Part shown: positions 15,993 through 54,816 of the stretch, one piece after another
Layout: each line of letters opens with the position of its first letter
How positions within the stretch are numbered: position 1 is the first letter of the stretch
Assembly: GCA_021513715.1 (NCBI GenBank)
Contig: CP084167.1
Coordinates: 2,336,001-2,400,000 of the forward strand
From: Candidatus Heimdallarchaeum endolithica
GTDB taxonomy: Archaea > Asgardarchaeota > Heimdallarchaeia > Heimdallarchaeales > Heimdallarchaeaceae
DNA length: 64,000 nt
Direction of reading: 5' to 3'
Notes under the pieces: model-generated
Databases searched by the model: none
Seen by the model: only the letters and a program-made list of their open reading frames with translations
What the model was told of the DNA's origin: nothing
Program-made: the position numbers and the translations under genes

Positions 15993-16092
15993 ATTTTATC
16001 CTATTTTTTTTCAAAATATATTTTTAATAAATGCTATTATGCCATAATAAGACAAAATAAATTGAAACGACAAAATAAGAAAGAAAAAAATA

Positions 16093-16246
16093 AAAGAAAA
16101 AAAACTTTAAAAACAAAGGAAAAATAGAAGAAACGTAAAAGGAAAACAAAAACATAGCCGCGATAGCTTAGTCGGTAGAGCATTCGGCTGTTAATCTTAA
16201 GATTTGAATGCACTACGGGTGTAAAAAGAGCAGCAACCGAAAGGCC
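16093..16246 (+). repeat. Left arm of 154-bp inverted repeat (tRNA-Asn upstream region + 5' gene part)
   Basis: Reverse complement of 54418-54571; first 70 bp identical, 11 mismatches overall by manual alignment. Confidence 0.95.
16157..16246 (+). pseudogene. Truncated tRNA-Asn(GTT): 5' acceptor strand, D arm, anticodon arm with 42-nt intron, variable loop; T arm and 3' acceptor missing
   Basis: GCCGCGATAGCTTAGTCGGTAGAGCATTCGGCTGTTA-intron-ACCGAAAGGCC followed by non-tRNA sequence. Confidence 0.9.
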
Positions 16247-16674
16247 GAATTTCCTATTTTGTGTTTTAAAAATATTTAACACATAAACCAATTTTTAGGT
16301 CGGGAAATGCATAAGCAAATCTGTAAATTTTTTTATAAAAAATAAAAAATCACGACCAATATTAAGGGTGGAGTTGTTAGGAATGGTTTGCTAAAAATCT
16401 AGTATATTGCAAATTCAATTAAAATGGTTTAATAACTGTCAAAAGATCTATTTTTTTTTGAGATAATGAATGTAATTTAACTTACTGTTCTTGTTTATTT
16501 AACCCTTATTTTTTTCCAAACAATTTCTTCATTTTTAGGTATTGTTTTATTTTGTAAAAAGAATTCATCTATGTATTCACACATTCTACACTTTTTGTTA
16601 CAATATTTCTTGTCTTTAATTCTTGGATATAATTGTTTTTCATATTTTAGTCTTTCAACAAAGGATATAGTCTT

Positions 16675-17684
16675 TGTTTACTCAATAGACTTGGGTTACA
16701 CTTTTGGGTACTAGAGAAACATAGGGGTGATTCATAAATCTTTCTCCTGGGGTGAGGAAGTTAAGAGATTGGTGAGGACGACTAAAATTGTAGTAAGAGC
16801 GATAGTAGGAGAGGTCGGGGTTGCAGTATTTTAGACCTAATCTTTCCATCTCACGGATGATTGTCCCATGTAGTCTTTCTACTTTTCCACATGTTTCAGG
16901 GTGAAAAACTCTAGCTCTGATGTGCTTTATTCCTTCTGTTTGACACCAACGGGAGAAGGTACTTGTTCCTCCTCTAACGGAAGAGAAGAGTGCTCCATTG
17001 TCAGTAAGTATAGACTCGGGGTAACCGTACTCTTTTATTGCTTCCTCTAGCAAACTTATTATCTGCTCTTTTTTTGGTGCAAAAGGGTGGAATTCAGCTC
17101 CCAGACAGAATCGTGAGTGGTCGTCTATCAAGGTTATGAGGTGGAGATGTTGTCCCTGTTCTTCTACCCAGAATGGTCCTTTCACATCTATTTGCCAGAG
17201 TTCGTTAGGTTTTTGACGTTCAAAACTCTTGTATCGAGGTCTTTTCCTCTTTTTTCTATTAACCCATAAAGGAAGACCTAACTCTTTTATTACTTTCGTC
17301 ACTGTCGTCTGAGAGAGTGCTTTTCCTTCTCTCTTCAACAAATAAGCTATCTTCTCCACATTCATTCCTTGTTTTATTCTTAACTCCCTTATCCTCTCTT
17401 TTAACTCCTCATCTACTTTCCTGTGTATAGTTTTTGGTCTGGAAGATCTATCTTTCCACCATACTCCTTCAGGGTTCTCTCTGAACCTCTTCAACCACTT
17501 ATACACAAACTTCCTACTCACCATATACTTGTGAGCTACCTCTTTTATCTTCTCTCCTTCCAAAGCTTTTTTAACCACAATCTTTCTTAGTTTCTCCAGG
17601 TTACGTTCGTTTTTGTTCATAATATATCACTTACCCACGTAACCCACTTCTATTTATTTGTTACCAATGTGAGTTGAGTATACA
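16675..17684 (-). mobile_element. IS481-family insertion sequence, 1010 bp, 26-bp imperfect terminal IRs, 17-bp target-site duplication
   Basis: TGT...ACA ends; IRs TGTTTACTCAATAGACTTGGGTTACA / TGTATACTCAACTCACATTGGTAACA (19/26); ACAAAGGATATAGTCTT at 16658-16674 and 17685-17701; higher GC than flanks. Confidence 0.93.
16682..17620 (-). CDS. IS481-family DDE transposase (HTH + rve integrase core)
   Basis: VSRKFVYKWLKRF HTH, LWQIDVKG, IDDHSRF, LTDNGALF, HPETCGKVERLH, YNFSRPHQSL. Confidence 0.95.
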   Translation of the reverse strand: MNKNERNLEKLRKIVVKKALEGEKIKEVAHKYMVSRKFVYKWLKRFRENPEGVWWKDRSSRPKTIHRKVDEELKERIRELRIKQGMNVEKIAYLLKREGKALSQTTVTKVIKELGLPLWVNRKKRKRPRYKSFERQKPNELWQIDVKGPFWVEEQGQHLHLITLIDDHSRFCLGAEFHPFAPKKEQIISLLEEAIKEYGYPESILTDNGALFSSVRGGTSTFSRWCQTEGIKHIRARVFHPETCGKVERLHGTIIREMERLGLKYCNPDLSYYRSYYNFSRPHQSLNFLTPGERFMNHPYVSLVPKSVTQVY

Positions 17685-18514
17685 ACAAAGGATATAGTCT
17701 TAGTAATCCTTTTTAGTTCTATATCCTCCTCAGTAAGATCTAATGTTCTTCTTTTCTGTTTATCATTGTTGTTTAGGTACCACAGTTCAGGAATAATTTC
17801 GATATTAGGTTTCTTTATTCTAATGATTTCAGAGTAGATTAGCACTTGTCTTTTGTCTCTAGGCGATTCTTTTCCTGTTTTTAGTTCTATCACTCTTATT
17901 GCTGTTCGATCTACTGTCCAAGCTAAAATGTCTATTCGACCTGTTAAAAGAAATTTTTCTGATAATTCATACTCAATTTTGTATTCGGTTCCTATAACAA
18001 GAGAAATTAGTTTTCCTCTATTATTCTCTTCAACTAAAGTAGAACAAAACATAGCCAAAGTGCGTAAATTAAAATAAAGCTTATCGTCAAACTTTACTTC
18101 TTTTTCTCTTTCAATTATACAATCAAAGTCCTTCTCTCCATCAGGAAAGAAAAATCTTTCTGTCAACTCATATAAAGCGGTAAAAAAAGATTCTTTGACG
18201 GATAGTTTTTCGTGTATGTAAAAATGTTGTACTAAGTCGAAATTGCTTGATAAAACAGATTGTAGAAGTAGATGGTAAAAAGTTCATAGCTCCATAGATC
18301 TTGAAGAAGAAGCATACTCTCTCAATTTATTCATTTTAAGTAGAACTGCAAAATATGGTCTTATTGTACAAAAATCATCTTCAAGAACATCAGTAACGCT
18401 AATACTAACATGTTTTTGGAACATGATATTCACGCTAATCTTTAATCTTTTAATTAATTTATAAAAAAGAAAAAAACATAGTCAAAAGTAACACATCTTA
18501 TTTTTTTTATTATT

Positions 18515-19969
18515 ATGTTTATATATCGAAATGTTATTTTTGAATTTGAAATGGCTTCAAGAACACATATTCAAGAATATGAATCATGTATTGTTTTCCA
18601 GAAATTTATGATCGAAGAAAACATACTTGTTAATTTCTGTAAACATATCGATTTTGGCATAGATGGTGAGCTGGATATATTACAAGAAGAGCCAAGGGAT
18701 GATTTTTACGAAGAACGTAGAGCAGTAGATATAGATTTAAGGAAAAAGGCTTTTGTTCAACTCAAATCTAAAAGAGAAAAAAGTAGGGTAAATGAAGATG
18801 GAACTGTTTCATATAGCTTTAAAAAACGACATTTAAAACTATGGCAAAATTCGCCCATACCCGTTTTTGTTTTTTTGGTTTACCTTGATGACTCAAAAGA
18901 GATCTATTGGACATATGTTGATATTGACTTACAAATAGAAGAAGGGGAATCGGAATGCCAAAACCTTACTCTTGAAAAACTAGAAGGGGGATGTAGAAAT
19001 AAATTCAATAAGATAATTGAGGAGCATTATAAAAAAACAGGATACAAATATAATGTCTCAACAAAATTACCAATGTTTAGAGATTTTATTGAAAGGAGAA
19101 AGCAAGGTTTAGAACTAAGAAAAAGTTTGATTTTCAAGGAATTAAATCCAATAGAAGATAAAAAAGCTAAAATGTTAAGTCCTTTTCCTAAATCAGGATT
19201 AAGAAAAAAAATCTCATTCTCAGAATATGCCTTATCTATAGATGATTTCTATGAAAAAATAGATGACGATGAATACATTAATGAGTTTTTTAGCCGTAAA
19301 TCAAGGATAGAAAGCAATATTATTGAGAGTGTATATAAAGCAGAAGTAGCAAAGATAAAATATGATCTTGTAAATAATCACGAAACTTTTTTTGCTGATA
19401 GTTGGATTGAAATATTTGAAAATATAACAAAAATAACAGAGGAATATACAAGACCTATTTTGTTTATTAATAGTGAACTAAGAGATATTATTCGAGGGAT
19501 TCCTGCAGCAGATAGACCTAGTCTAGTAAATCAAGTTCTTCATAATTCAAAAGAAGATGCAATATCACATTCTCATTATGAAAACATAATAAATGGAAAA
19601 AATGTTTATTTCTATTTCTTTTATATTCCTAGACACTTAACTAAAAAGTTTCCTGTGTTAAACGATATTAAAATAATTATTTTAGATAGAGAAAAGGTAA
19701 AATATATTGTTAAAGAGCCATTAAGATTAGAATGGAGGACGATTACTAGGCCAGTTCAAGTTGATATTATCGATGGCGCAGCATATAAAGTTACAAAAAA
19801 AGAAGAAGAGTGGGATTGGTTTGACTTTACTTGTTATACTGTAGGAGAAATAAGAAATGAAGGACCAATAAAAATATACAAATTTTCCGAAGATGAGAAA
19901 AAGGAATTACAAGACTTTGAAGATAGACTAATAAAACTTACAAAATCAAGAAAAATTACCAAGGGATAA
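18515..19969 (+). CDS. DUF4365-like PD-(D/E)XK nuclease fused to a C-terminal domain with possible HK97 capsid-like fold (likely start 18551)
   Basis: DFGIDGELDI...FVQLKS...LKLWQNSPIPVFVFLV...IYW fits DUF4365; the C-terminal assignment is by eye only. Confidence 0.7.
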   Translation: MFIYRNVIFEFEMASRTHIQEYESCIVFQKFMIEENILVNFCKHIDFGIDGELDILQEEPRDDFYEERRAVDIDLRKKAFVQLKSKREKSRVNEDGTVSYSFKKRHLKLWQNSPIPVFVFLVYLDDSKEIYWTYVDIDLQIEEGESECQNLTLEKLEGGCRNKFNKIIEEHYKKTGYKYNVSTKLPMFRDFIERRKQGLELRKSLIFKELNPIEDKKAKMLSPFPKSGLRKKISFSEYALSIDDFYEKIDDDEYINEFFSRKSRIESNIIESVYKAEVAKIKYDLVNNHETFFADSWIEIFENITKITEEYTRPILFINSELRDIIRGIPAADRPSLVNQVLHNSKEDAISHSHYENIINGKNVYFYFFYIPRHLTKKFPVLNDIKIIILDREKVKYIVKEPLRLEWRTITRPVQVDIIDGAAYKVTKKEEEWDWFDFTCYTVGEIRNEGPIKIYKFSEDEKKELQDFEDRLIKLTKSRKITKG

Positions 19970-19990: not shown

Positions 19991-20290
19991 TTATTCGTCT
20001 ATTATTTTTTGTATTTCTTGTATAAATTCTGCTACTTTCATTCCTTTTTCTGTTAGGCTAAAAACACGTTTATTATAAGGTGGTAAGTATTCCTCTTCTA
20101 TGAGTTCAAGGACGAGAAGTTTGTTAAGTGAAGTATAAACAGATGTTTGTGCTATACCAGGTATATTATCTATCAGTTGTGTGATCATTGCTTTTTTTTC
20201 AGATAATAGGTATAACAGTATCCTAAGAGCTCCTTTTTGTTCAAGCAAAGAAAGGGAACCTTCTCGTTCTCTCATTCTTCGGTATCCCAT
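19991..20290 (-). CDS. Winged-helix (HxlR/MarR-like) regulator of the element
   Basis: LEQKGALRILLYL...SVYTSLNKLLVLELIEEEYLPPYNKRVFSLTEKG; paralog at 63224-63523. Confidence 0.88.
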   Translation of the reverse strand: MGYRRMREREGSLSLLEQKGALRILLYLLSEKKAMITQLIDNIPGIAQTSVYTSLNKLLVLELIEEEYLPPYNKRVFSLTEKGMKVAEFIQEIQKIIDE

Positions 20291-20738
20291 ACCCTTAAAC
20301 TGTCTAAGAGCTAAAAAATATTCTTATACGCATAATGTATGCATATATACAAAGGTTTTATATATCGGTAGCCATATAATACTTATAGGTGGATAGTGAG
20401 CGACGGAAAAAAATGAAAACAACCTAAGGAGTGATGAAAAAAGAATGATGGGTCAAAGATATGAGAAGAAAAGAAGAAAAAAACGTATATACGCCTTCTT
20501 CTGTAGTCTGTTCCGCATATAAATATATAGGGGACAAAGAGTTAGGTGTTTTGTGGATAAGTATTCAACTAGAGGGTGTAAAGCCTGATTTTTATAGTTT
20601 TGTTAGTAGATCATTTATTGGAAAAAAGTTTCTTTTATTTTTTTCTGCCTTTATAAATTATTTTTATGATAATATTGTAAACAACAAAACAAGAGGAGGA
20701 AAGAGAAGGATTTCTTCACTTCAAAAAAGTGAAACCGT

Positions 20739-21923
20739 GTGGTGGAGTTTATGACTGTAAGTGAAAGGGGAAAGGATAAGTTTTTTTCAAATGTCTATTA
20801 TGATTTTAAAGGGGAAAAAAATCGACTCTCTACCGAAATAATTCCGTTTGAGTTTGAAGCAGTAATACGAGAGGAACATCTGATTACTGTTAAAGATATT
20901 AGAATAAAGGCAGGAATAAAATATCATCTGCATATTAAAAGTTTGGAGACAGATCAAAAATTACAAGGAGTAGACCTTTTAATTAGAAAACGTGGAGAGA
21001 AGATAGTTTTTACTTTGTCGCATCGAATGAAAAAACTGTTCAAAAAAGGAGAAAAAGTAAAGGTTAGTATCTTTTGTCCAACAGAGGAGTTTTACGGAAG
21101 AAAACAAAAAGAAGGAATAAGAGATGTATCCATCCACAACGATGAGATCTTGTGTATAGCTTTTATCTATCAAATGGGAGAAAATAAAGGACTAATCAGT
21201 CTCAATAGCGAAAATGAAGAGTATTTGTCAAAATTAGAAGGAATACAAGAGACTTTTCATATCTTGGATGATAGAATAATAAGGAGAGATGAGGAAGGAA
21301 ATGTCCCCTTTGAAGCTAAAAGTTACTCTAATTATGCAATAATAAGATACTACACGATAATGAACAGGTATGATTTCATAAAGAATCAAGAAAATCACTC
21401 TTCTGTTTATACTTATTTCGTAGGAGATGAAAAAATCCTTCCTACAGTAACATCCGTCAAAGCTTGTTTAGTGATAGTAATAAACAAGTCCTTGATTCCT
21501 ATATGTCTAGAAGAGAGAGTAAGAAAAGAAATAAACATGTTTCTGGACAAAAAAATGCCTTTATTTAAAATACAAGACCAACTTTATGAATTGAAAAGAG
21601 TAATTTTACAATATATTAGAGCGTATTATAGACCTATCATAGCAGAAGAGACGTACAACGAGTTCAACATTAAATCAATGATTTTTCATTTAAACCGCAA
21701 AACTTCTCCTGTATACAAAGCAATTATATCCCTCGTATCTTTTGATAACTACATCTCAGTAGAAAAACTGGTGAACTATGTAGAAGAGAAGTATAAAATA
21801 AAAGATAGACGTTACATCAGTGAATCGTTAACAGAACTGATAAATCTTGGAATTATAAAAAGAAAGGTTGAGGACGGAAAAGTAGGGGTAGGGGTTGTGA
21901 GATCATATGATGAAAAAAGATGA
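20739..21923 (+). CDS. Hypothetical element protein with C-terminal winged helix (likely start ATG 20751)
   Basis: 394-aa ORF; GGTGGAG precedes ATG 20751; ISVEKLVNYVEE...YISESLTELINLGIIKR wHTH-like end; overlaps the ParA gene. Confidence 0.75.
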   Translation: MVEFMTVSERGKDKFFSNVYYDFKGEKNRLSTEIIPFEFEAVIREEHLITVKDIRIKAGIKYHLHIKSLETDQKLQGVDLLIRKRGEKIVFTLSHRMKKLFKKGEKVKVSIFCPTEEFYGRKQKEGIRDVSIHNDEILCIAFIYQMGENKGLISLNSENEEYLSKLEGIQETFHILDDRIIRRDEEGNVPFEAKSYSNYAIIRYYTIMNRYDFIKNQENHSSVYTYFVGDEKILPTVTSVKACLVIVINKSLIPICLEERVRKEINMFLDKKMPLFKIQDQLYELKRVILQYIRAYYRPIIAEETYNEFNIKSMIFHLNRKTSPVYKAIISLVSFDNYISVEKLVNYVEEKYKIKDRRYISESLTELINLGIIKRKVEDGKVGVGVVRSYDEKR

Positions 21924-22707
21924 ACAAGGAAAAGTAGTGAGTTTTTTCAGTTTTTCAGGAGGAGTAGGTAAAACGACTTTGGTTGTTAACATTGCTAAAA
22001 TGTTAGCCGAACAAGGAAAGAAAATAATAGTGCTAGAACTAGAATTACTCTCACCTAAATACCAAACTATTTTTGGTTTTAATCCTGCGAAATCTATAGA
22101 TGAACTATATATGCAAAACTATAGAAACAATCTTGAACTAGAAACGGTTGATAGAATAATTAAGAAAAGTATAATTACAAACGATTATGGAGTAGATTTC
22201 ATTATCCCTACTGCTCCCACAACAATAGAAGATCTAATTAACAGAGATAGAGACTATAATCATAAAGATTTTGCAAACTTTATAAGAAATTTACTAGCTT
22301 ATCTGAGGAAGAAATACGAGCTAGTGTTGATAGACTCTCCAAGTATAACGAACACCGAAATAATGAGTGTTTTACTGCTATCAGATAAATTAGTTTATGT
22401 CTGTATTCCCCCTTTGGAAGATATATCTGAGGGAATAGAACAAATAAAAAAATTTCCAGAGAGTACATTCATCGATCCAATTGATGTGATAATAAACAAA
22501 GTACCAGTAGAAACAGAAAAAAAAAGACAAATATTGGAAAGAAAAATGAAAGAACGACTAAAGAAAGAAAAAATAAACAAAGTAAGAATAGTAGAATTAT
22601 CACTAAATTATATAAAAGAGAATGTAAAAGAAAGGAGAATATACATAGAAAAAGAAAAGGAAAAAAACATTTATCAAACACTGCTAAACTACAGTAAAGA
22701 ATTATAA
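21907..22707 (+). CDS. MinD/ParA-family ATPase with deviant Walker A
   Basis: VVSFFSFSGGVGKTTLVVNIAKMLAEQGKKI, YELVLIDSP, VIINKV. Confidence 0.9.
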   Translation: MMKKDEQGKVVSFFSFSGGVGKTTLVVNIAKMLAEQGKKIIVLELELLSPKYQTIFGFNPAKSIDELYMQNYRNNLELETVDRIIKKSIITNDYGVDFIIPTAPTTIEDLINRDRDYNHKDFANFIRNLLAYLRKKYELVLIDSPSITNTEIMSVLLLSDKLVYVCIPPLEDISEGIEQIKKFPESTFIDPIDVIINKVPVETEKKRQILERKMKERLKKEKINKVRIVELSLNYIKENVKERRIYIEKEKEKNIYQTLLNYSKEL

Positions 22708-22860: not shown

Positions 22861-24243
22861 CTATTTTCTCTTATTTTTTAAAAGAAAGAGGAGATTTTTA
22901 ACCGAGAAAATAGAAACGAAGGATAAAGGAGTGAGAACGATTATCAAGTACATTATTTGGTTTTTGATTAAGGGATTGGTATGGTTATAAAATTCTTCAA
23001 GATTGGTTAAACCATCACCATCAAGGTCAAGATAAGAGTCATTAGTTAAAGGGTCAGAACCATAATGAACTTCCCAACCGTCAGGTAAAAGGTCTCCATC
23101 CGAATCAGGATTCCAGGGGTCAGTACCATAAAGATGATCTTCAAGATAATCTAGTAGCATGTCTTCGTCGAAATCGCTTCCACGAGGAAAAGGGTCAAAA
23201 GCTTTAGCTTTTCCATCGATAGGGTAAGGTTCAGAGCCATCGGTATCTGACCAATAGTTACCAATAGAATAGACGGGGTCAAACCAGGTGTTATTCGCTC
23301 CATCATCAAAAGCTTGAGAAAGATTATTACCTTTATTGTTCTTGAAAAAAACGTTACGTGAGATAAAGTTGTTAGAAGCAGCTTTGTGAACAAACAGTCC
23401 ATACTCACTGTTATTGAACAAAACATTAGAAGAAAGGTGATTGTTAGAACCACCTAAAAATATCCCACTTTTTCTGCTCTCGGAAATAACGTTATCGGTA
23501 ACGGAGTTGTTATCCCCACTTACGCTTATTCCTTTATAAAAAGTATAAGTAATAGTATTATTTGTTATGATGTTATTATGTCCTGAACCATAAATTCCAT
23601 GTGCTCCACTATACGATATGTAGTTATTAGTAATAATGTTAAAACAACTTTCAGTCATATCAATACTTTTTCCACTATTATGAGAAATATTATTACCACT
23701 AACCAAATTGTGAGAACCGTGTTGGATTCTTATTGCTCCCCGAGTATGAGTTATAAAATTGTTAATAACGACGTTATCAGAACTGTATAAACGTATTAAT
23801 TCGCGAGAATAAGTTCGATTGGTTCCACCAACAAGAGTGGAACCCTCAAGGTGAAGATGGGCGTTATCCCATGCTCCAATATCCCAAGGACTGTCAGTGT
23901 AAGTTAGAATGGTTGTATCATAGATCTCTAAAGAAGAATTGTCTATAGCATAAATACTTAGAGAACCCACTCTATCATGTTCAATAACAATAAAACAATT
24001 ACGAAGAATAAGAGAGCCTTCGTCCTTGATAAGAACTCTGTTGATAAGTTTAATAAACTCGTTTTCAACTACAGTAGGTTCAGTAATGTTCCAAATACCT
24101 TCCGGAGGAGGAAAGGTTCCTGAGCTAGATGCAGAAGAAGTAACTAGAGGACTAAAAGTAGGTGAAAAGAGCAGGAGAGAAGAAAAAATCACAAGTAAAA
24201 GCACGAACGAATTATTTTTCCTTTTTGTTAGAATAAAAAGCAT
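22861..24243 (-). CDS. Membrane-anchored right-handed beta-helix (NosD-like) protein with Ca-binding DxDGD repeats
   Basis: Signal-like N-terminus, N-x-I-x-x-N repeats, GNYWSD motif, DSDGDLLPDGWE / DLDGDGLTNLEE repeats, C-terminal TM. Confidence 0.88.
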   Translation of the reverse strand: MLFILTKRKNNSFVLLLVIFSSLLLFSPTFSPLVTSSASSSGTFPPPEGIWNITEPTVVENEFIKLINRVLIKDEGSLILRNCFIVIEHDRVGSLSIYAIDNSSLEIYDTTILTYTDSPWDIGAWDNAHLHLEGSTLVGGTNRTYSRELIRLYSSDNVVINNFITHTRGAIRIQHGSHNLVSGNNISHNSGKSIDMTESCFNIITNNYISYSGAHGIYGSGHNNIITNNTITYTFYKGISVSGDNNSVTDNVISESRKSGIFLGGSNNHLSSNVLFNNSEYGLFVHKAASNNFISRNVFFKNNKGNNLSQAFDDGANNTWFDPVYSIGNYWSDTDGSEPYPIDGKAKAFDPFPRGSDFDEDMLLDYLEDHLYGTDPWNPDSDGDLLPDGWEVHYGSDPLTNDSYLDLDGDGLTNLEEFYNHTNPLIKNQIMYLIIVLTPLSFVSIFSVKNLLFLLKNKRK

Positions 24244-24378: not shown

Positions 24379-24466
24379 AAACGTCTATAAAAACTATCGA
24401 CATTTTTGAGAAACGTCTATAAAAACTATCGACATTTTTGAGAAACGTCTATAAAAACTATCGACA
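24379..24466. repeat. 32-bp perfect tandem repeat x2.75 (AAACGTCTATAAAAACTATCGACATTTTTGAG)
   Basis: Units at 24379-24410, 24411-24442 and partial 24443-24466; no spacers. Confidence 0.95.
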
Positions 24467-25051: not shown

Positions 25052-28000
25052 ATGGAGAAAATAAAGATAAAGAAAAAGTTAACAATTTATTCAATTTTAA
25101 TAATATTACTATTCTCTAATTTAAGTGGATTGAATTTTAAGTTTTTACAAGCAGAAAATGGAGACCAGAGTCCTCCATCTATACTCAGAGTTACACAGTT
25201 TCCTGAAATTCCTACCCAATTCGATGGAGTAGTAGTTTATGTAGAAGTGGAAGATGAAACAGGGTTTAGTTCAATATATTTAATGTATGAGAGAAACAAT
25301 AACTTAACATCCATACCAATGAAGTATTTACCCAATTATTATGGAAATGGAACATGTTTTTATGCTTCTCTTCCTTCTTTTTCAGCAGGAACTAGAATAA
25401 CTTATTTTATCGAAGTGACTGATTCGAGTGAGAATCAGAATATTGCACACTCACTAAAATATGATTATGTGGTGGTGAGTGATGGAATACCAAAAATAAA
25501 GTTATTAAACGAACCAAAATTTCTGTATTCGGAAGAAGAATATACTTTCCAGTTTACAATTTATGATGAGGATAATATCTCTCTTCAAGATACGGGAATT
25601 GATCCACCTTTATTATATTACAGAACAGAAAGAGTAGAAGGAACACAACAAGTAGTTTATAATTCCACGTCAGAAGTATTTGAAAGCGTTTTACCTTCCG
25701 TTAGTTTACTAGATGGAGAAATAAAGGAAGGAGAAAAGATAGAGGTGTGGGTAGGAGCTTATGATAAAAGTCCTGCACACCAGTATGGAGAGAGCCAACA
25801 TTTGCAGTTACCAGTCATTAACGAGAAACCTTACATTTACGGTGTGGATAGATACCCATATATTCCTTTGTATAATGAAAGTTTCAATTTAACCACAACA
25901 ATCTATTATAGAGAAAATATAGGTATGAATATCACGCAAGTATCGGCAACTATAAACCGATATGATGAGGTTACACAAAAAATTACAAAGCAAAGTTATA
26001 TTTTAACCCAAAGTGAATATTCAAAATTTGTATTTACAGGAATAATAGAACCGATTGGATATATAGATAATATAGAACTAAAAATAAATTGTAAGTATAC
26101 TTCAGATTACCAAATAGAAGAAGCAGAAGTAGAAAAACAAGAAAAAAGTTTTAGCGTAAGAGATTGCGAAGCTCCAGCGATATTAGAAAGTGGATTTAGC
26201 AGCGGAGTAACAACATTAAAAGAAGGAGAAGAAGTAAAAGTCTATGCCAATGTATTAGATCGTTTGAATACAAAAGATGTCACTGCAATAGTTACTGAAG
26301 AGTATAAATCAGGATTGCAACTTATTCGTTCATCAAAGGAATATTTTCAAAAATTGAGTTACTATGGAGATGATGGAATAAGTTTTATTCAACAGATGAG
26401 TATTGATCAGAGTATAAGTGGAGATTTTTATTTTGATGGATTAGTTCTAAAAGAAGAATATGTGAGTAAAGTTAGAAAAGAAGCAGCAAGCGAAACATTA
26501 TCTATTTACGCAGTAGAAGGAAAAAATGAATTATTTATAAAAATCATAAATCCTGAAGGGTTTTTACCATTAAACTATAACCAATTGGTTATACAAGCAC
26601 GTGCTATAGGACAAGATATTCTTTTAGCAGGAGTATATGCGGATTTAGGAGAAACAGTAATTTGGAATGAAACAGTAGGAAATTACGTTTACGATAATGT
26701 GTTGCCTATAGACAAGTTTTTTTCTACAGATGAATACGGGACAGCTTGTTTATACAATCTTCAAAATATCGAAGATATTACTAATTCAATATGGCTAAAA
26801 TTCGTTCCTGCTGATGGAGGAAATTTTAGTTCATCTGATGGTTTAAGTATTGATAATATTAGATTGTTCAGTATAAATACTCTAAATGGTGAAAGAATAG
26901 ACTGTTATCATCAAGAAATAAATCATGATTTTGTTGAATATTACGGTTATTATCAAGCTAAAAAGGTTGATCAATTAATAACTTTCTATATCCAAGCGAG
27001 CGACGGAATAAATATCCAAACCCAAAATAATGAGGAAACAATAATAGTAACTGATGGTAAACCTCCTACATTTGCCATTAATCAAATATCGGGAGTGGAT
27101 ATAGAGGATACTGAACTTAAATTTAGTATGGCTATAACTGATTATTCTATAATAGATCCAACTGATGCATTAAATGTCTGTTTTCATTACAAGATTAACG
27201 GATTAGAAGAAATAATTGTAAACTTAACAGTTGCTAATAACTGGGATGAAAAAGGAAAAGTGTGGGTGTATAATTTTAACAATACAACAATATTGAATTT
27301 CAATGATATGTGGGAATATTGGTTCAGTGCAGAAGATCCTTGTGGTAATCGTGGAGAAAGTAAACATTACTCTTTTGTTGTAGAAGAAAATAGTGCACCT
27401 ACAATATCTTTAACTTGTCAAACAGTTACATATAATGGAGAAGAAAAAACAGTTGTTGAACCCGCAGGGGCAGAAATAGGAATATCTGGAGAATATTTAG
27501 ACATAAACATGGATATAACAGAGAATGAAGGAGGAAGTGGAATAAAACTTATCCAGCTATATTGGTATACTTCTTCTCACGAATCCAATTGCTGGAGTTC
27601 AGAAGTATATAGTTTTATGTCTGTCTATTCCATCACTGATTTGACTGTAGCAGAAAAAATGATACATAATTTCGATAAAGTAGGTATACTTTATTATTAT
27701 GCACAAGTAATTGATCATGCAGGAAACATTTATCAAACACCAGAATATCAAGTACAGTTAATAGATAATGTAAAGCCTATAATAAAAATCAACTCTGAAT
27801 ATAATAGCCCAAATGGGTTGTATAATGTCGACAATTCGTATGGTGATATAAGCTATAATGAAGATGCATATATCACTTTAGAAATAGAAGATGCATCAAC
27901 TATAACTAACCTAATTTTGGAGGCAGAAACATCACAAGGTACCTTTGCAGGAGAAGTTATATGGGACGAATATTATCATGATTGGACATTACAACATTAT

Positions 28001-31000
28001 CAGATTAAAGTAAATAAAGCGTGGGAAGTAGGAGAAAATATCAATTTAAAGATTACAGCGGTAGATTCTTTTGGAAATGCACTAAACAATTTTCTATTAG
28101 GTACAGAATACATTATAGATAAACTTCCTCCTGTTTTACTCTCCTATTCGGATAATAATCCTGAACTAGGGGGAGGAGAAATAACTATTTCTTACCAAGT
28201 TAAGGATATAGGAAGTGTTGTAGCTTACCTTTATTATAATTTTAATTCGTCAGTGGAAACACCCTCAACTGAAAACGCTACTCTTTCTGATTTTCAAGTG
28301 GCTGTAATGGAACTTGAATCAATAGACGATACAAAATACGCACCTTATATTGAATGGTCATTTACCAAAACATTATCTCTACCATTAGAAATATTATATC
28401 CTGCAGTATCAATATATTTTGTAGCATTAGACGAATACAATAACAGTTTAACATGTATTGGAGGAAAAGCATATTCCCTACCTAATTTTGATATAGAAAC
28501 AAGTATTTACACTCCCAAGATTGAATCATATAAAAAACTCGCTGATAAATTTGGAGATTTTAGAGAATACCCCAGAGATAATGTTGATAAAAGATGGGTG
28601 GGAGAAACAGAAACAACGATAATTTCCTATGACTTCAGTGTAGAAGAAAATTTTTCTATAAACTATGCTCATCCTTATGGAGATAGATTTGCAAAAAGCG
28701 TATTGGAGTTTTATACTAGGGGTTGCCAAAATAGTTACTACGCACTTGGAGAACCAGATGGAAACATGGCGGAGGTAGGAGAATATATACGTTTAGACAT
28801 GGAGTATGAAGGAAAAATATTGAGTAAGCCTGGAGATGGAGAAGATTTTAAAGTTTATGGGGGAGCAGGACAATATCAAGTAATATTAATAAAAAATGCA
28901 TTGTCTCCCTTGCCAGCATATTATCATCTAGGAACAGGAACGGGTATAACTTCTTGGGACTTAGAAGCAGTGGGTTTAGATGAAGTAAGATATATAGAAA
29001 TATGGAATGAAAACACTGATAACTCTCCAGTTTATATTGATGCAATAGAAGCAATACATTGTGATGGGGATAGTTTCACCGGTCAAGAATGGCAAAATGC
29101 AGAAGAAAATAACGGAATTCCTGCAAATATAGTAGATAAGCAACTTTCAATGTATTACCATGGTTATAATGGAAACAATGAAATATTAGAAACCACGGTC
29201 AATCCTGAGTTTTACGACTACTTGTACATACCTCTATGGATGAATACCTATCTCCCTCAAATAAAACTGTCAATCAACTTTGTACAACAAGCTTATTCTG
29301 TTGATCTTTTTGCAGTAGATAATATAGCAAAGGATTCTTTGATGCAAAATGGAAATTATGTGCATCTAGGAAAAATAGATGGCTCTGGAGTGTATTATTT
29401 TGCATGTTCATACCCTAATAGATACACAGGTGTGTTATTCAAAATAAGACATAGCTGGGAAAGAATAACGAGCGAACTTGTTCAAATGTACAATTATGAA
29501 TTTACGCTTGATTATATTAAATTATTTGGAATTTTTTATAGAATAGAAGAATTATCAGGACCAAATTATTCAGAATTTGAAAAAATGTATGAAAAAAATA
29601 GCGGGAGCAATCCTGATCCTCTATTTTTACAAATGGAAAATTATAATGGTGAAAATCAGAAAAGTGCAAGTATAGATAATATCCATGAGGAAATATGGGC
29701 TGATGCAATTAATGAATTGGAAATTTTTGGTGGTACAAAAGGAGAATGGTTTTATCTCGCAATAGATAGAGCAAGTGAGCAACCTAATAATCCCATTGTT
29801 ACGGATGTTCAAGTTGTTTATGTAGACGGAGAAAGATTATATTGGAAAAATGCATATAATAACCAAAAAAGAATAGCCTTAATTTTTGACACTTTAGAAT
29901 TCTATGAAACTTATGGAGTGAGTAATTACTTTTACATTATGTCAAATGCCACAATTGAGGGAAAAGGATTTACAGCTTACTATTATTCTTTTTATTCTAA
30001 TAATGAACTGTTAGAAGGGTTCAACTATGAAGGAATACCTCAGGCAGATTTCAGGACAGGTGATGCACTTAACCCCACTCTTGAAGATACAAGTTACGAT
30101 TCTCCATGGTGGAATAACCCATTAGATTTTACCTCTCTCAATTCGGATAAACACGGGTGTATAGTCGTACAAATCCAAGAAAATCAGTCGGGTAATATTG
30201 ATTATCTAAATTTTGAAGGATATTACTCTTTCTTATTGGATGATCTTTATCTTGGTGGAGAAGAATTACATACACATAGAATCGGTTATCTCCCTATACA
30301 TATAGAAGGATTTAGCTACTATAGTGGAATAATGGACGGTTTTTATATTACTGACGATATAAAACCCAAATTAAGATTGCAGACATCTATAGCAAATCTT
30401 TATTCTCACCCCTTAGAATTAAGCTATGTTCTTCCTCTCGAGTTTATTGATTATGGAGAAGGGTGGTTACCCAGAGAAATAAAAGATTATGATACTAGTT
30501 ACTTAGATAATGAAAGATATAGATGGTTAGAGGTAGAATTTCACAATAAGATTCAATATGCTATTACAGAACTAAATAATGATTCATGCACACTTTTTCA
30601 GAAAGTGTTCGATACTCAATCAAATGAGATTTATTTTGAAGAGAGCTATACTCATTATAAAAGTAAAAATATAGATAATGAACTCACAAAGAGTTTCTCT
30701 CATATAATTCCTGAATCAGAAGCTATTTTTCCAAGTTCATATCAAGATTTTACTTACAAGTCAAGCTTAAACTATGTAGGAAATATTTCTTCTTCAGATT
30801 ATGTAGAAGTTGATTCACCAGAGATTAAAATAGGAAATACAAAAAAAGAAGATTCAAATATAAATGAACAATATGAAAGAGCGAAAGATGAATACAGATT
30901 TTATTATTTCTTGCCATATGAAAGCGATACAAATTCTATTGCTTTTGTGAATATTTCATCTAAAACTATAAGATTTGATGATGAAGCTTGTACTCCAAGT

Positions 31001-34000
31001 AATATAATAGACAAGATAAACATAAAAGCTCATTTATCTCTCGATATAGGGGAAAGCTTAGAACAAGTTTCAATTTACAAGATATACGCAATAGATATTG
31101 AAAATAAAGAACATGTTTTATACTCATCCAATTATGATGAATACTATTTCAATTATACAAGCGATTTAAATTATGAAATAGACTTAAATGTTTCAGCAGA
31201 TTCAGCGTATTTCTACATAATAAAAGAATTTAAAGTAGAATTTAAAATAAAAACCTTTACAGCAAGTGCTCAAGATGTAGTAGAAATATGTTTTGCAGAG
31301 TTGAAAGTTATCACTGATGAATTTTTACCCTATGATGTCATCTATCCAAAGGATACATCACCACCTTCAATCGATCTTATTCCTGTCTCTCCTCTGAGTC
31401 TAGAAAATAACATTTGGACGTTTACATACTCCGCAGAAGATTATTCAGGATTGAAAAATAATCAGTTCCAATATCGTATAAAATATGATTGGGGAGGAAT
31501 AGATGATCAAGGTATAGTATATTCTAAATCCGATAGTTATTCAGAATACATGGTTTTTAATCTTGGAGATGAATTCAATATTTTTAGCCCTAGTCCTCAA
31601 ATTGAGGGGGATGTTACCTATTATGCAAAGCGACTATGGCTGGAAATTTATGCTGTGGATGGTTCAATATGGGAAAATGAATATTTCTATGAAAAAACAT
31701 GGCAGATAGATGATGGGATCAGTCCTTGGATAGAACAACAATTTAACTATCTTATTGTGCAAATGTACAATGATAATCAACTTATCTGGACAGAAGCGAA
31801 AGATATTGCTGGAGTAAATACAGTTGAACTCATAATAGAAAATATTGAAGATTTTCATCATAACATCTATCAAATCAATGATATTTACACCTTAAACAAA
31901 ATTAACAATAGATGGTATTTAGGAGATGATTTAACTCCATTTAGTTTTTACAAATATGGAGAAGAGAAAATCCTACCTTACAAAGTAAATTACTATTATA
32001 CCATTTATGCAGAAGATGGAAAAGTATGGGATTCAGAAATTTTTACTCTTCAATACCAGGATGGAATAACTCCAAACTACTATACTCACTCAATAGAGGC
32101 TTATACTGACGCAGAAGATGTGGTAATAGAGGTATGGACATATGATGAGATATTTACTAATGATGAACTTAATGTTTCAGCAGAATATTGTCAATCTATT
32201 TATGAAAATTTTGAGTGGATAAATAATGGCTCATTATATTATGAGAGTTTTAGTTTGCAAACGGATGGAGAAATTATTCATAATGGAGAAACGTACTATA
32301 GATATAAACTAGTTATTCCTCATGATAGAATTGAAGCAGGGTACGGAATAGTAGGAAAAATAATTGTTTCAGATCTAGCATCAACACCTAATGTTTTTAC
32401 TATTCCCATAGAAATACAATTGTATGACTCGAGAATAGTATTAGGAACACCTCATCTTACTCCTACTCCAGATCAAAATGGATACGTTCATTTTCTTTCT
32501 GATTTATCCCTATCAGTTATAATAATTGAATCGTATTATCCTACTCCTGTCGTATGGGCAGATGTATATGTCAATGACGTTTATTCTACTACATTGAATC
32601 TTGGAACAGGAGATTATGTTACATACGTTTATGGTTCATTTGATTATAACACCATAGGAGCAACACTACACGATGAAGTGAGATTAGAACTTCATGCTTC
32701 AGCAACTATTAACTCAGAAACAGTGAATGAAGAAGAAGTAAGAATAATAGATTTTGTCTACTGGGATCTTGTACCTCCTGAAATTACATATGTTTCGTCT
32801 ATTCCTGCAAGAATGAATCCTGCAGAATTCTCATTTAAGGTAAAAGAAGATATCAGAACGATTATCCCTGGATTAATTACAGTAGAATATTCTCTCTCCA
32901 ATCAAAATAATTGGAACCCGTGTGATGTGGAATATACAGAGTCGGTTGGAAATGGAGAGTGGTTAGTTAATGCTTCTTTTGACAGTTCAAGCATGTCAGC
33001 AGGAGAGATATACGATTTCAAAATAACAGTGACGGATTATTATAGTGTTACAAGTTTAACAGTTAGTCGAACATTAACAGATATTACAGCTCCTACAGTT
33101 TTATTTACTTCCCCTTCCACCCCAGGATACAGTCAAGATATTACTGTAGAAGCAGTTCTAGTAGATGATTCAGAAGTTGACATAGATAATGTGTATATTA
33201 ATTACAAGAACGAAAATGGAGAATGGATATATTCTACAGATTTTAGTATTGAACAAAAGATGAGTTATGATACGAATACTAACTCTTTCCACTTCACTTT
33301 GGAATCAGAAAATCATCAAGCTCCTTACTCTATGCTGATAAAAATATGGTGTCAAGATAAATATTCTAATGCCCATTGGTCAGAATTCACAATATCTCTG
33401 GAAGACGACACCCCACCACTAATTATGAATGATGAAGTGTTAGTGAATATAGATAACATCAACGCAATCACCGCGGTAGCAGATACTGAAATTGTCTTAA
33501 GGGCAAGAGATGCTTGGTCAGCAATAAGAGAAACAGAAGTTCAAGTATATAAAGAAGTAAGTGCTGATAGCTGGGAACTAATAGCTGTTATTCTTCTTTC
33601 TCCAGACAGTAGCAGAGACGAAGGAATATTTAAGGGATACTCTGGAATATTAAATAAAGAAACACTTGAGATAAACAATGTCGTAACAGGAACACGGTTG
33701 AAATTTATTCCGTGGGTTGTGGATGATAAAGAAAACGAAGCCGATACTTTTGAAATCGTAAAAAAAGTAGTTGAAGGAAAACCTGAAATAAACACCGTAA
33801 ACATGAACCCTTCACCTAGTTCATATCTACCTTATGATTCAACTGTAAATGTAGAAGTCAACACCACTTGTATTTATAGTGTAGAGGAAGTAAAATTAGA
33901 TATATACATAGATGATGTGTTGAAGATAACTGGTTACTCTTTCACTTTTGATTCTGGAACAAATACATGGAAAACGGTTTTACCGGACTTAAGCCAATAT

Positions 34001-37000
34001 GCAAGAAAAAATGTCAAATTGATGATTTATTCATATACAACTCCACCAGGAGAAAATAGTCTTTCTTCTTCTCCAGAAATCATAGAATATTATCTGAAAG
34101 ACGTCTATGCTCCAGTTTATCTTGAAAATAACATCCCCTTACTTTTTGCTGAACAATGCAATAATAAAGTATGGTTTGCTGTTTATGAAGATATAACGAT
34201 ATTAGCAGAAACAAACATTGCTGTAAAATTCAAAAAACATGGTATTATATCCACATATTATGCTACAATTGATAGTATAACAAACTATTATGATGGAGAC
34301 AGCAAAAAATACAAAATAGAGGTTACTTTAGATGATTTAATCAATTTTAGTGCAGGAGAAAATATAGATATAATTCTTGAAGTAACAGATGATGAAGGAA
34401 ACCTTTTATCTCAGACTTTTGATGGCAGTTATGGTACGGGAATAACACTTATAGAATCTGACCCTCCAACTATAGCTGTAGAATCTTCTTTTAGTTCTTC
34501 TCAAGAAGCAGGGGTGGATTATGAAATAGGGTATAACGAAGATTTGATATTTGATTTTAGTTTAAATGACGTCTCTGGTGTAGACGTGGGAAGTGTATCT
34601 TACAGTTATACAATTATTGATCCTTCTTCTTCATTTTCTCCCTCTGGAATAAATCCTTTTTCTTTTACAATAGGCACTACAAATTATGATTACAATGCGT
34701 TAATTACAATAAACATTAATGCACAAGATATTCATGGTTTTGGCTCCTCTTTTCTATATCGCTTTAGAACAATAGATAATGTTCTTCCTTCGGATATTGT
34801 TTTTACAAGTGGATTAAGTTCTACGATAGAAGTAGATTCACCCTATTCCTTTAGTTTTAGAGGAATAGATGAAATATCTACCAATCAGAACATGGAATGT
34901 AAGTATCGTTTGTCTTACGATGGGGGTTCAACTTGGACAAGTTACACCGTCTTAGAAGCTTCTTCTTATGACTCTGCTAATGATGCGTGGGATGTGACAA
35001 TAGGAGCTTATTCTGATTTGAGAACAGTAACTGTGGAAGTAGTTGTTACTGACCAAAGTTCTAATAGCAGAAGCGAAACTTTCTCATATACAGTTATAGA
35101 TACTTTAGTTCCTGATATTACATGGAATAATGCCCCCACGAGTTATGGTGATAACTCTGATTTGTGGGTTAGTGCATTTATCACTGACAATATAGCTGTA
35201 GATGAGAGTAGTATAGATTTTTATTATGTTAAACAAGGAGATTCTACAGTTTATCATTTAAGTTATGAAACAGATCCTTTACTTACAACTCTCTTTAAAG
35301 CAAAAATACCTAACAGTGCTCTATCATGGCAAGATGTTGTTACTTATTATGTTTATACGGAAGATAGTTCTGGTAATAGTTTAGAGATTTCTAAAACCGT
35401 GACAATAAATATTGATGAAAAAAAACCTATTATAAATTATTATGATTATGGAGCTGAAAACACATTTTACTATTATGACTATTCAGTTGATGTTATAAAA
35501 GATTCTTGGGATTTCGAAGATGATACTGATGGCTGGGCAGATGCAGGGATATATTCTAGTCAACGGTATGTGAATGAATATGGAAATTTGATTGTGAGAG
35601 TAGACTCTGGAACAAGATACTATTTTGGAACTTATTATTATGAATATACTCACCCTATCAACATGGTGGATACTTCTTATCGTGTTTTCCGAATATCTTG
35701 GCGTGTGAGTCATGTTCCCTCTGGGGCAAGTGTAAGGATGTGTGTGGGTGTTAGTTCTTCTGGTAGTGGAGAAAATTTCTGGAATCATGATACGTGGAGA
35801 TACTCTTCATGGTATTCAGATACAAACTGGCATACAAGTATTATCTACTTTGATTCTTTTGATTCTTCAACTGACGGGAGAAACATACAAAAAATACGTT
35901 TACACGTTGCTTCTAGTTCCAGTAGCGCAACTTTCACTCCAAGTACTGACTATTGGGCTTGTCAATATATCAACCTTTACGCACATGAAAATAAACCCTC
36001 CTTTGATAGAAGTGGAGCAATATATGTCACAGTAGACGATAACACTGATTTGTCTTCAGTGAAAGCGTATGTCAAACGTAGTGATCAGTCTACTTGGCAA
36101 GGAGGGTGGACTTTAACAAATTACATGACAAATAGATGGTATATTTACGCTAATGAGATGTTTTTTATATGGTATTCTTCTTCAAGTTGTTATGATATCA
36201 AAGTAGTTGCCACTGATAGCAACTCTAACACTGAAACAGTCACTTTTACTCAAAAAATACAATCTTTGGATATGAAATGGCCATCTATCACCAGTATCAC
36301 GTCTGATGATTATAATATCTACAATGACGAATGTTGTTATATTACTGTCAACACTTACGACCCTGGCGATCCTTGGAATGGCGATAAAGGGGCGTCAAGG
36401 ATATATTATTCTAATAATGTCGACTTTTATTATAAAGCTTCCAGTCAGTCCTATTGGACACTCTTCTCAACCAACTATTTCTCTGAAAGTGGAAAGTATG
36501 CAAATGCAAAATTCTCCGCTGCAAGTTCTTTTCCTGATCAAGATATACAGTTTAAGGCAATAGTTACTGACAGAGCAGGAAACTCTATAACTAGCAGTAT
36601 TATTACCATCCATGTAACTAAACGTCACAATGCTCCTGTAGTTGTCAGTAGATGGGACTCAGGATATGATAATACTAAAGTTAACGATTATTTTTATGCT
36701 CGCGCACATATTACTTGTGATAGTGATGACATTTCTTCTGTTGATATACGTTATGGTCCTTCAACCTCTTCATATACAACTTTGTCAGGAGGAGCTTCAA
36801 AATATTCAGGTAATTTAAGAGATGGCTACTGGCAGAAAGGTCTTTATGGCGGTGATACAATAGGAGAAAGAGTTTACTTCAGTTTTAGAGCAAAAAGTGT
36901 TGCAGGAGTAACAGGTAGTTGGAGTAGCTGGGACTATGTAGAATATAAGGGAATTTTGTTCTCTCAAGAACTTTATTCGGTAGACGATATAATCTATAAA

Positions 37001-37729: not shown

Positions 37730-37731
37730 AA

Positions 37732-40700
37732 ATGCAAAAAATCAAATCTAAAATGAATACTTTTCTAGGCAAATTGAATAAACGTAGTCTTGTTATTACA
37801 GGAGTAGCGTTATTTATTTCAGTAATTGTTATCCTTCAGAGTTTCTCTATTGCTCTCTATCCTCAATCATCAGACGATGATAGCTATACCTTTTTCTACT
37901 CTGACTTTTCAGATAAAGAAGAGTGGAAAGGAGTTTATCGCTTATCTTGGGGGTCTATAATTGTAGATAGTAATTTTAATGCTATGAGTAAAAAAATAGA
38001 CCTTTATTGGTATGGTATGCAACAGTTGTTCTTAGAAGTGAAAGGAATAGATAGTTTAAAACTTGATTCTTCTTCAGCAATACAAGTTATAGACGCTGAT
38101 ACTTCTCGCATCTTATATGAACTTCGAGGATCTCAACTTTCTTCATTTAATGTCTCTGTAGACTTGTCCGCATACGTGTATGAAGACACTTCAGCGCTAT
38201 ATATCAATATTATTGGAAGCATAAAAATTATTGATTATATAAGAATTTTTACTCCTAAACTGTATTATCATAATTTTCTTAACGATGGAAAAACTTTTCC
38301 GAATGCTTATCACGAATTTAATCAGTTATATATTGATTATTTAGCCTACACAGAAGAAGTGACCTATGAAACTCCAGTTATCAAAGTTCCAGAAGGTAAT
38401 AACGTTAATCTTACTTTCGCTTTTAATTTAGTCCCATCGCTTACTTCTAATTATTCTATGTTTGCTCATATTTATGCCGATATATATGGATTAGGAGGTT
38501 TTGGTGAAGTAGAACAGCGAATAGAATTAGGATACAGTTATACAAATATGAGTTTTGGAGCAGACTATGTCTCTCTTATTGATAAAGAAATAACACTTTT
38601 AGGAAACTACTATGTAAGATTTTACTTAAATTTTGATTGTTTTGAAACAAATGAGGAAGACATACAAATAAAATTAATTGCTTTTTTCATTCAACCTCAC
38701 AATAACGTTGAAGCGCAGTCTGAATATGTCGACCCTGCACTTTATATTCGCAAATCTCCCAATGCTTATATCTCTGAACAAGTAGTAGAAGGAAGGGTAT
38801 TTAATGCTCTTACCGTTGATAGACAAGGATACATTGCTACATATAAGATCTCACATATGGATACGATATTTTATGATAAATTAGATCCAAGCACTATTGA
38901 AGAAAATTATACAATAGGTAACCCTGATACCTTAGTATATGATTTCGACAGTTCTAAGAATCTGAGATTAAACTCCTCAGGTTACCTTTATTCCTCTGAG
39001 TCTATTGGTAGTGATTTCTCTGTTTCTACTTCTTTTAATCTTAATAGTTTAGCAAGTAACCGTATTTTTGCAGGTATAGGTATTTATGGCACACATTCTT
39101 ACGAATTTGCTGTAGGGAATATGACTCTTTATGAAGAAACTTATGTTGATGAAGAGACAACCACAGTGAAAGTAAAAGAGGTTTATCAAGCTTATTTACA
39201 TGTCTACAAAGACAATTTATTAATTCGCTCTTATGCTCTCAATCAGACTTTTGGAGAAGGACAAGTTATTTCTCTTTCCCTTTCCTCTAAATTTGGTTAT
39301 AAAGCTTATAGTGTTCAAATTAATTATGAAGAAATAGTTATTTCTCTTCCCGAGATTATAGCGATAGGAGGAAAACCAGGTATATTTGCTAAAATTCCTC
39401 AACCTAGCCCTGATAACTTTGTTTCCTTTTACTACTTATCCGCAAGTGGTATAACAGAATATAGTCCCCGTCGTTTATTGATTTATAGTAAAACTCAACA
39501 ATATGTTACTGTTGTACTTAAAGCTACAAGAATCAATCCTTTGAGTTTTTCTTCGGAAAAAGTAGTTATAGACGAAAAGAAGTTATCTCAAAACAAAGAA
39601 GGTATACTTTATTTTTCTTATATTCCTAAACCTTTTGAGTATATTCATTTAGAAGTGTATTGTACTAATCCTGATGAAGAGCTAACTAGTTCATTTAGTA
39701 TTTTGGCTATGAAATTCTCAGGAATACACGAATATAATACAATTATCCCCTCTTATGATTACTATGATATATCTGATTCTGTCTATTTCGAGAAACGTAA
39801 TCTTATTTCTGAAGACCTTTCTGATAATTTTATTGCCTCTTATGACGCAATAGTAGAAGAAAGGTATAGTTTATTGGAGATAGGTGCTGAAGCACAAGAC
39901 TCTCTTCCCGATACCCAAATAGATATTTATACTCGAAAATTAAATAGTGGGCTTCCTTTCACCTTCCAAGGAACAGTTTACTGGACTGAACATGAAAGTG
40001 GAAGTTTCTTTTCTCATGTTCTTTATCTTGATCTTTCACCCGGAAATTATGAGATAAGATTAGAACGACCTTTAATTTTTACAAGTAAATTAAATATTAG
40101 TTACCTTCTTCTTCGACCTTTGACCTCTTATGCTAATGCTGTAACTGATTCAGTAGGTTTTACCAACCCTTTATCTTGGGAAAAAGATTTTACCACTGAT
40201 AAAATTGATGCATTCAATGGTATAGACCAGTTTATAGAAGAGAGTTATTACTCTTTAGTTCATCCCAGTTGTTATATGAAAGACGATGGAAATGGGAACT
40301 ATGAACAATATACTGATTGGACGCCTTCTACAGATGATACACAGATATGGTCAGTAGAAGATAACCTTGCTTCCTTTGTAGGAGGAGTAAAACTTGATAT
40401 TCCTGATGTTTCCACGGGTTCTGAAGGCTATCCCTATTTGCGTTTTGTTGCTAGAACGTACTCAAACTATACAATAGACTTAAAATTAACTTTAACTTAC
40501 TCAGATGGAAGCACAAACGAGTACTATTATTCTGTTTCTCAAGAACCAAAAGTATACTTTTTCAATTTTGATTATACTGATAGTCCTAAAATTTTATCAG
40601 GAATAGAATTTTTCACCAACTATATCCTTTATAACGATAAGGACGAGTCTGTTATCGTTTCCGATATTCATCTTTATCGCTTTACTAACATAGAAGTCAA

Positions 40701-54389: not shown

Positions 54390-54507
54390 TGGCGCCGCGC
54401 AAAGGACTTGAACCTTTGGTCTTTCGGTTGCTGCTCTTTTTACACCTTTCGTGCATTCTTTTTTTCTGATTAACAGCCGAATGCTCTACCGACTAAGCTA
54501 GCGCGGC
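54390..54507 (-). tRNA. tRNA-Asn(GTT), intact, 42-nt intron at 37/38 (54429-54470), encoded CCA
   Basis: Cloverleaf folded by hand: GCCGCGC/GCGCGGC acceptor, TTCGG-CTGTTA^A-CCGAA anticodon arm, AAAGG-TTCAAGT-CCTTT T arm, G73-CCA. Confidence 0.96.
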
Positions 54508-54571
54508 TATGTTTTTGTTTTCCTTTTACGTTTCTTCTATTTTTCCTTTGTTTTTAAAGTTTTTTTTCTTT
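54418..54571 (-). repeat. Right arm of 154-bp inverted repeat
   Basis: Reverse complement matches 16093-16246. Confidence 0.95.
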
Positions 54572-54816
54572 GCTTGCTTTTTTCTTTAGTTTTTTTTCTT
54601 TTTATTTTTGTTTTTTATCCATCTTGTTTGCAATAATGAGTTTTTTACTCAACAAATTTTTGTAAAATTTCATAGTGGGCACTTTTACAATTACATTAGA
54701 GTCCCTTTCGTTTTCACTTCCTATATCAGTTGATATATTACTTATTCTTTTTCTATTTTTTTCGATTCCTTAAACTTAAGTTTAAATAATCAAATATTTT
54801 TATTCTTTCAGATTAT

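Follow-up and report, generated by a model that had tools for sequence, protein, structure and literature searches.

Proteins with the HK97 fold are familiar as the building blocks of virus heads and of the encapsulin shells that house metabolic enzymes, and HNH effectors of the Cap5 type are switched on by oligomerisation. In published fusion encapsulins, the attached domain is ferritin-like, a cytochrome or helical. The cargo-peptide site of family 1 encapsulins consists of the N-helix and the P-domain, their N-terminal fusions face the lumen, and the E-loop is one of three features universal among shell-forming encapsulins (PMC11664910). The DREN (DUF4365) nuclease domain of the SPARDA systems shows no activity by itself and becomes active on forming a tetramer (bioRxiv 2025.04.08.647717). 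Here, we describe a protein of Candidatus Heimdallarchaeum endolithica, designated P0001, in which a nuclease domain of this type is joined within one gene to a predicted HK97-fold domain.

The window, that is, the whole stretch of 64,000 nucleotides that was analyzed, contains an element with the twin giant genes, the four upstream genes including MinD/ParA and the downstream tRNA that characterize the aloposons of Ca. Heimdallarchaeum (PMC8813620), and the gene for P0001 is located at the left end of this aloposon (Table 1). The close match to an element of H. aukensis suggests that it corresponds to Aloposon2. The start of the divergent Cas4-like gene lies 126 bp upstream of the P0001 gene, for which an alternative ATG is present at 18515; the start of the homolog P0007 corresponds to 18551. 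H. aukensis and three contigs from vent metagenomes likewise have the gene in the slot between the Cas4-like and wHTH genes. In the second element (62-64 kb), about 215 bp separate these two genes, in agreement with the first-pass annotation, which had described the slot as empty in the paralogous element. Two related elements of the host genome lack a P0001-type gene, and a frameshifted stub of such a gene, comprising its first ~50 codons, occurs at a different tRNA site of the same genome, next to a Cas4-like gene. Profiles for portal proteins (PF04860), terminases (PF03237) and PF05065 capsids have no match in the host genome, so that the earlier remark that no portal or terminase genes are nearby holds for these two profiles genome-wide, and neither portal nor terminase nor prohead protease occurs among the called genes at the loci of the homologs; the gene context of a viral major capsid protein was thus not found.

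Table 1. Features of the P0001 locus (positions within the window)
Feature	Position	Strand	Remarks
Truncated inverted copy of tRNA-Asn (5' exon, intron, part of 3' exon)	16157..16249	+	Left end of element
Divergent Cas4-like gene, split by IS481 near codon 245	16498..18424	-	Intact with 303 codons in H. aukensis
IS481-family element (transposase 16682-17620)	16675..17685	-	Many near-identical copies in the genome
Gene for nuclease and predicted HK97-fold fusion (P0001)	18551..19969	+	Single open frame, 472 codons/472 aa
DUF4365/DREN PD-(D/E)XK nuclease domain, residues 1-165 (D34, D38, Q70, K72)	18551..19045	+	Pfam, Foldseek, VIA
Predicted HK97-fold domain, residues 172-445: N-helix, stub E-loop, spine helix, A-domain, P-domain sheet	19064..19885	+	AlphaFold2 and structure searches
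E-loop remnant, residues 203-213, 11 residues between two strands	19157..19189	+	DSSP of model
C-terminal helix, residues 447-468, outside the HK97 fold	19889..19954	+	Model; absent in P0009/P0010
Four-gene cassette: wHTH (-), 97-aa ORF, 394-aa ORF, MinD/ParA ATPase	19991..22707	.	Aloposon, PMC8813620
NosD/beta-helix surface protein gene	22861..24243	-	
Twin giant genes, 4225 and 5541 aa, the Otus and Ephialtes pair of aloposons	25052..54357	+	PMC8813620
tRNA-Asn(GTT) with intron	54390..54507	-	Right end of element

Several further observations concern the element as such. Its bounds (16072-16249 and 54390-54592) are marked by an inverted, truncated copy of the tRNA-Asn that includes the upstream region, the 5' exon and the intron, whereas integration ordinarily results in a direct repeat of the tRNA 3' end. 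The Cas4-like genes at 16498-18424 (IS481) and 62170-63008 (frameshift) are both broken, and two intact copies are present elsewhere in the genome. A scar of this same element near tRNA-Cys and tRNA-Gly (C1:2087387-2103915) comprises an intact Cas4-like gene, the frameshifted start of a DUF4365 gene, a MinD remnant and two NosD-like copies. Upstream of the first giant gene, a 32-nt repeat occurs in tandem as two exact copies and one partial copy (24379-24474), and just past the tRNA-Asn a gene at 54817-57210 encodes a 797-aa XPD/DinG-like helicase with an N-terminal PD-(D/E)XK domain.

The N-terminal ~165 residues of P0001 had been assigned to DUF4365-type PD-(D/E)XK nucleases from their motifs, and this assignment was confirmed: residues 25-125 match DUF4365 (Pfam PF14280) with an E value of 5.9e-12 and 46.3 bits against a cut-off of 24.3, and the motifs D34-x-G36-x-D38 and Q70-x-K72 are retained in the full-length DUF4365 homologs, these being the PD and (Q/E)xK catalytic motifs of PD-(D/E)XK nucleases. 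When the full-length model was compared with solved structures, the DREN domain of SPARDA (9qcc, E 1.6e-7) emerged as the top Foldseek match of the nuclease domain, and Hjc and I-Ssp6803I structures were matched as well (VIA). By analogy with SPARDA, the nuclease activity of P0001 may depend on tetramer formation. Outside DUF4365, nothing significant was found in Pfam, PHROGs, NCBIfam, PADLOC or the PDB sequences; the PADLOC match is confined to residues 32-143.

The remainder of the protein was modelled with AlphaFold2 from a 14-row alignment of residues 168-472 (pLDDT 78.2, pTM 0.75; five models with pLDDT 72-78). The best 50 Foldseek matches of this model in the PDB are all HK97-type capsids or encapsulins (top E 7.7e-6), and those of its BFVD matches that have names are capsid or head proteins. 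A search of 48,161 solved chains that is independent of Foldseek likewise listed 50 chains, all of them with the HK97 fold; the encapsulin of Pyrococcus furiosus (2e0z) led its first pass with Z 12.0, an rmsd of 4.0 and 203 aligned residues, and HK97 prohead I reached Z 10.1. In a second look, ranks 1-20 were all taken by family 1 encapsulins (best 2e0z_C, Z 12.6, rmsd 3.3 Å, 196 aligned) and the first phage chain followed with Z 11.0. The same structural matches were obtained for residues 173-444 by Foldseek and VIA from a model of the full-length protein, which reached pLDDT 75.9 and pTM 0.55 and is of low confidence in the linker 166-177. Spine helix, with its conserved part at about 253-275, A-domain and P-domain are all present in the predicted models, and the encapsulin alignments run from the encapsulin N-terminal helix to the last strand, helix 175-191 of P0001 being placed on the encapsulin N-terminus in the manner of the family 1 N-helix on the P-domain. 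The first-pass annotation had read an HK97-type order of motifs into residues ~225-460 and had named a predicted structure devoid of HK97 similarity as the outcome that would speak against it. Structure prediction and searches instead returned the HK97 fold, so that the proposal stands as far as the predicted fold is concerned, while the start of the domain had to be moved from 225 to near 172 and now includes an encapsulin-type N-helix. Taken together, the models support the view that the C-terminal domain of P0001 adopts the HK97 fold. We do not conclude that it descends from an encapsulin rather than from a virus, because the gap between encapsulin and phage scores is small and may reflect compactness.

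Sequence comparison yielded no comparable link. Searches of PHROGs, PDB sequences, Pfam and NCBIfam revealed no similarity to capsids or encapsulins, the family profile did not match any of four single capsid or encapsulin sequences significantly, and neither tblastn against phages and plasmids nor pattern scans of viral and metagenome data nor Atlas feature searches uncovered a capsid link. The profile for family 1 encapsulins (PF04454) was matched by no family member even at an E value of 10, and by no protein of the host genome. One non-significant profile match placed the predicted spine helix onto the spine helix of the L028 capsid; the contig of this capsid has 64% GC and is probably a contaminant of its assembly. 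A longer fusion was not found, which is weak evidence. The score of 0.01 for a predicted complex of three copies carries no weight for or against assembly. Since a sequence-level signal is absent, the fold call rests on prediction.

One element of the fold deviates in the entire family. The strands that flank the E-loop stub are residues 200-202 and 214-222 in the full-length model, and the spacing amounts to 11-12 residues in all nine homologs that cover the region, in line with the earlier impression of a short E-loop; the extended hairpin typical of the HK97 fold is absent from the model. For the family 1 encapsulin of L049, the E-loop comprises about 36 residues when the register is set by eye. 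Because P0001 has a mere stub and the E-loop is universal in shell-forming encapsulins, it is doubtful, judging from the model, that the protein assembles into a normal closed shell. Column conservation in the C-terminal domain peaks in the N-helix (0.62) and the P-domain strands (0.57), the parts to which cargo peptides bind in family 1 encapsulins, and the A-domain has the lowest value (0.42). P0001 and its ortholog from H. aukensis are 97.7% identical, and four of their 11 differences fall into residues 219-225, just past the stub loop; this cluster may be a recombined patch but is only suggestive.

The family is small: with the C-terminal 303 residues as the query, an exhaustive search retrieved seven other clusters. 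Among 400 Asgard genomes, true matches are confined to the Heimdallarchaeaceae, where six of the 30 other genomes contain them, in several cases as remnants only; the weak match in genome G084 turned out to be an unrelated protein. While P0002, P0013, P0008, P0009, P0010 and P0015 carry DUF4365, P0004 and P0012 have an HNH domain instead that matches profiles of CBASS and SAVED-HNH effectors (E 2.6e-14). In a midpoint-rooted tree of the C-terminal domain, the HNH clade groups with the P0001 lineage, apart from the DUF4365-bearing P0008-P0011 group, with support of 100/100. On this topology, which nests the HNH clade among DUF4365 lineages, the effector is exchanged at least once. Decay is common in the family: P0007 and P0003 are two halves of one frameshifted gene, P0015 loses its frame after the spine helix, P0005 and P0011 lack their 5' ends, and G011 and G012 contain remnants with stops. 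The C-terminal domain is under purifying selection, as indicated by dN/dS values of 0.30 for the HNH pair and 0.09 (saturated) for P0009/P0010; the closest pairs gave 0.5-0.8 and are too small or mosaic-looking, and a clear sign of diversifying selection in the C-terminal domain was not detected.

The homologs of other genera stand outside aloposons, and several family members have restriction, CBASS, SIR2-TPR or AbiJ genes next to them. P0009 has SIR2-TPR, PLD and Eco57I-type restriction-modification genes within 6 kb, P0004 is accompanied by genes for HNH, type ISP restriction-modification and HerA proteins, P0015 by AbiJ-NTD and resolvase-TIR genes, and P0008 by a PIN gene. A CD-NTase gene follows P0005 at a distance of 100 bp, and a second CD-NTase gene with a 2TM-like gene, NucS and HEPN are also present. 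P0010 and the short contigs offered no informative neighbours, and P0001 itself is surrounded by aloposon genes, not by defence genes. This pattern has to be read against the facts that genomes of the host family are rich in such genes and that the loci are kin. Homologs with a swapped effector, which the first-pass annotation had suggested looking for in defence islands, do exist, and several homologs lie in defence neighbourhoods. Two neighbouring loci deserve mention in their own right: at L024:1577-3789, two convergent CD-NTase genes, one with the 2TM-like partner, adjoin the 5'-truncated P0005, and at L032:4222-5268, near P0015, a resolvase domain is fused to a TIR domain of the CAP12/Pycsar type. 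A Mrr-like remnant that had been spotted by eye upstream of P0005 was not supported on checking.

What could such a protein be good for? An antiviral role of the family appears likely, and because its relatives reside among antiviral genes, P0001 probably represents a new kind of defence protein. Two nucleases that depend on clustering, one fold of the assembly type, defence neighbourhoods and fast turnover together suggest a sensor and an effector in one gene. As DREN domains cut only as tetramers, clustering by a capsid-fold domain would be a natural switch. In the mechanism that we tentatively favour, and that as a whole we consider possible rather than probable, the nuclease would be inactive as long as the protein is dispersed, and the HK97-fold domain, with most of its E-loop gone, would no longer make a closed shell. 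Instead, it would meet head-assembly parts of an infecting HK97-type virus, namely its capsid subunits or else a peptide of a scaffold or protease that docks onto the face formed by N-helix and P-domain. The resulting clustering would gather four or more DREN domains, whose sequence-nonspecific cleavage of DNA would then abort the infection. HK97 viruses such as GuangzhiV1 have been predicted for Heimdallarchaeaceae (PMC13700489). A contig of a Heimdallarchaeaceae assembly starts with genes for a protease, a scaffold-like protein and an HK97 capsid (L029:4-2103, 39% GC), a candidate source of the trigger, and an Asgard assembly contains a gene for a 353-aa capsid-like protein with a weak PF04454 match that is probably a virus capsid gene (L050:1066-2127). 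The term capsid mimic, which the first-pass annotation had used, is one reading among several, because the closest structures to the model are cellular family 1 encapsulins and not viral capsids.

A somewhat unlikely but serious alternative is that P0001 is a defence nuclease whose capsid-fold domain serves as a general oligomerisation scaffold or senses something else, be it another viral protein, a host stress signal or a CBASS messenger. All evidence for defence fits this explanation equally well, the sequence of the domain is far from that of any viral capsid, and a CD-NTase gene directly follows one homolog; this link, however, was seen once, in a copy without its 5' end, and a mere scaffold would not need the whole fold, which is kept from the N-helix to the last strand. 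It is unlikely that P0001 is a fusion encapsulin that stores the nuclease inside its own shell or rings until the shell opens, comparable to the Pyrococcus encapsulin with its ferritin-like domain. The exclusive occupation of structure ranks 1-20 by family 1 encapsulins would fit, as would the flexible linker 166-177, the match to 2e0z that starts at residue 110 of the latter, about where its shell part follows the fused domain, and the location of N-terminal fusions in the lumen (PMC11664910), but every homolog has the E-loop stub, PF04454 is not matched, and family 1 encapsulins were found in a single one of 400 Asgard genomes and in none of this class. We consider it rather improbable that the gene serves the aloposon itself, as addiction toxin, by excluding rival elements or as a mobility nuclease: although the same slot is kept at 97.7% identity between two species and also in vent metagenomes, no integrase was recognised in the element and Hjc and a homing endonuclease are among the neighbours in nuclease fold, two related elements of the host genome do without the gene and the homologs of other genera are located outside aloposons. 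Little weight is given to the Trojan-horse idea that the HK97-fold domain becomes part of the invader's procapsid, where the stub E-loop would spoil the lattice and the nucleases would cut the viral genome in the head during packaging; as the N-terminus of the fold faces the lumen, the nucleases would be gathered inside the head and thereby become active. The least plausible reading is that a shallow alignment led to a false prediction of the HK97 fold, for although this alignment has 14 rows, profiles do not match and an Atlas single-sequence model of low confidence (pLDDT 0.46) does not resemble capsids, the five models are similar in confidence, the second, full-length model leads to the same matches, about 200 residues align across the full encapsulin chain and 50 out of 50 listed chains have the HK97 fold.

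If they act in defence, P0001 and its relatives would exemplify a third use of the HK97 fold, as an immune switch with fused nuclease, cut-down E-loop and exchangeable effectors, and would constitute a lineage-specific defence of an Asgard group close to eukaryotes that is missed by current defence scanners. Being a soluble protein from a single gene whose catalytic site is known, P0001 is a tractable test case. A literature search that reached few subscription papers found no report on a nuclease-fused or defence-linked HK97 fold, and within this reach the architecture predicted here appears to be new. To our knowledge, neither CapRel SJ46 nor the satellite scaffold TcaP employs an HK97-fold domain of its own as a sensor. 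Both resemble P0001 in acting on viral head proteins, provided that our best explanation holds (PMC9712102; PMC10945586). The aloposons of Ca. Heimdallarchaeum share the host element with its MinD-containing four-gene cassette, twin giant genes and tRNA end, and the main text of the paper describing them mentions neither DUF4365 nor a capsid fold (PMC8813620). SPARDA (DUF4365/DREN-APAZ with short Argonaute) possesses the same nuclease domain and provides the best structural match of residues 1-165; in contrast, P0001 lacks APAZ, has no Argonaute among its neighbours and combines DREN with a predicted HK97-fold domain in one gene. The HNH domains of the swapped homologs match the profiles of CBASS HNH-SAVED effectors (Cap5 type), with the HK97-fold domain taking the place of the SAVED sensor. 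Finally, family 1 fusion encapsulins (the Flp fusion 2e0z of P. furiosus and the cytochrome fusion cEnc of anammox bacteria) share with P0001 the N-terminal enzyme domain, the flexible linker and, according to the models, an HK97 fold with an N-helix and no long N-arm, whereas P0001 and its homologs differ from them in carrying a nuclease (DREN or HNH) in place of a redox or iron protein, in their stub E-loop, in the absence of sequence similarity and in their defence and mobile-element contexts.
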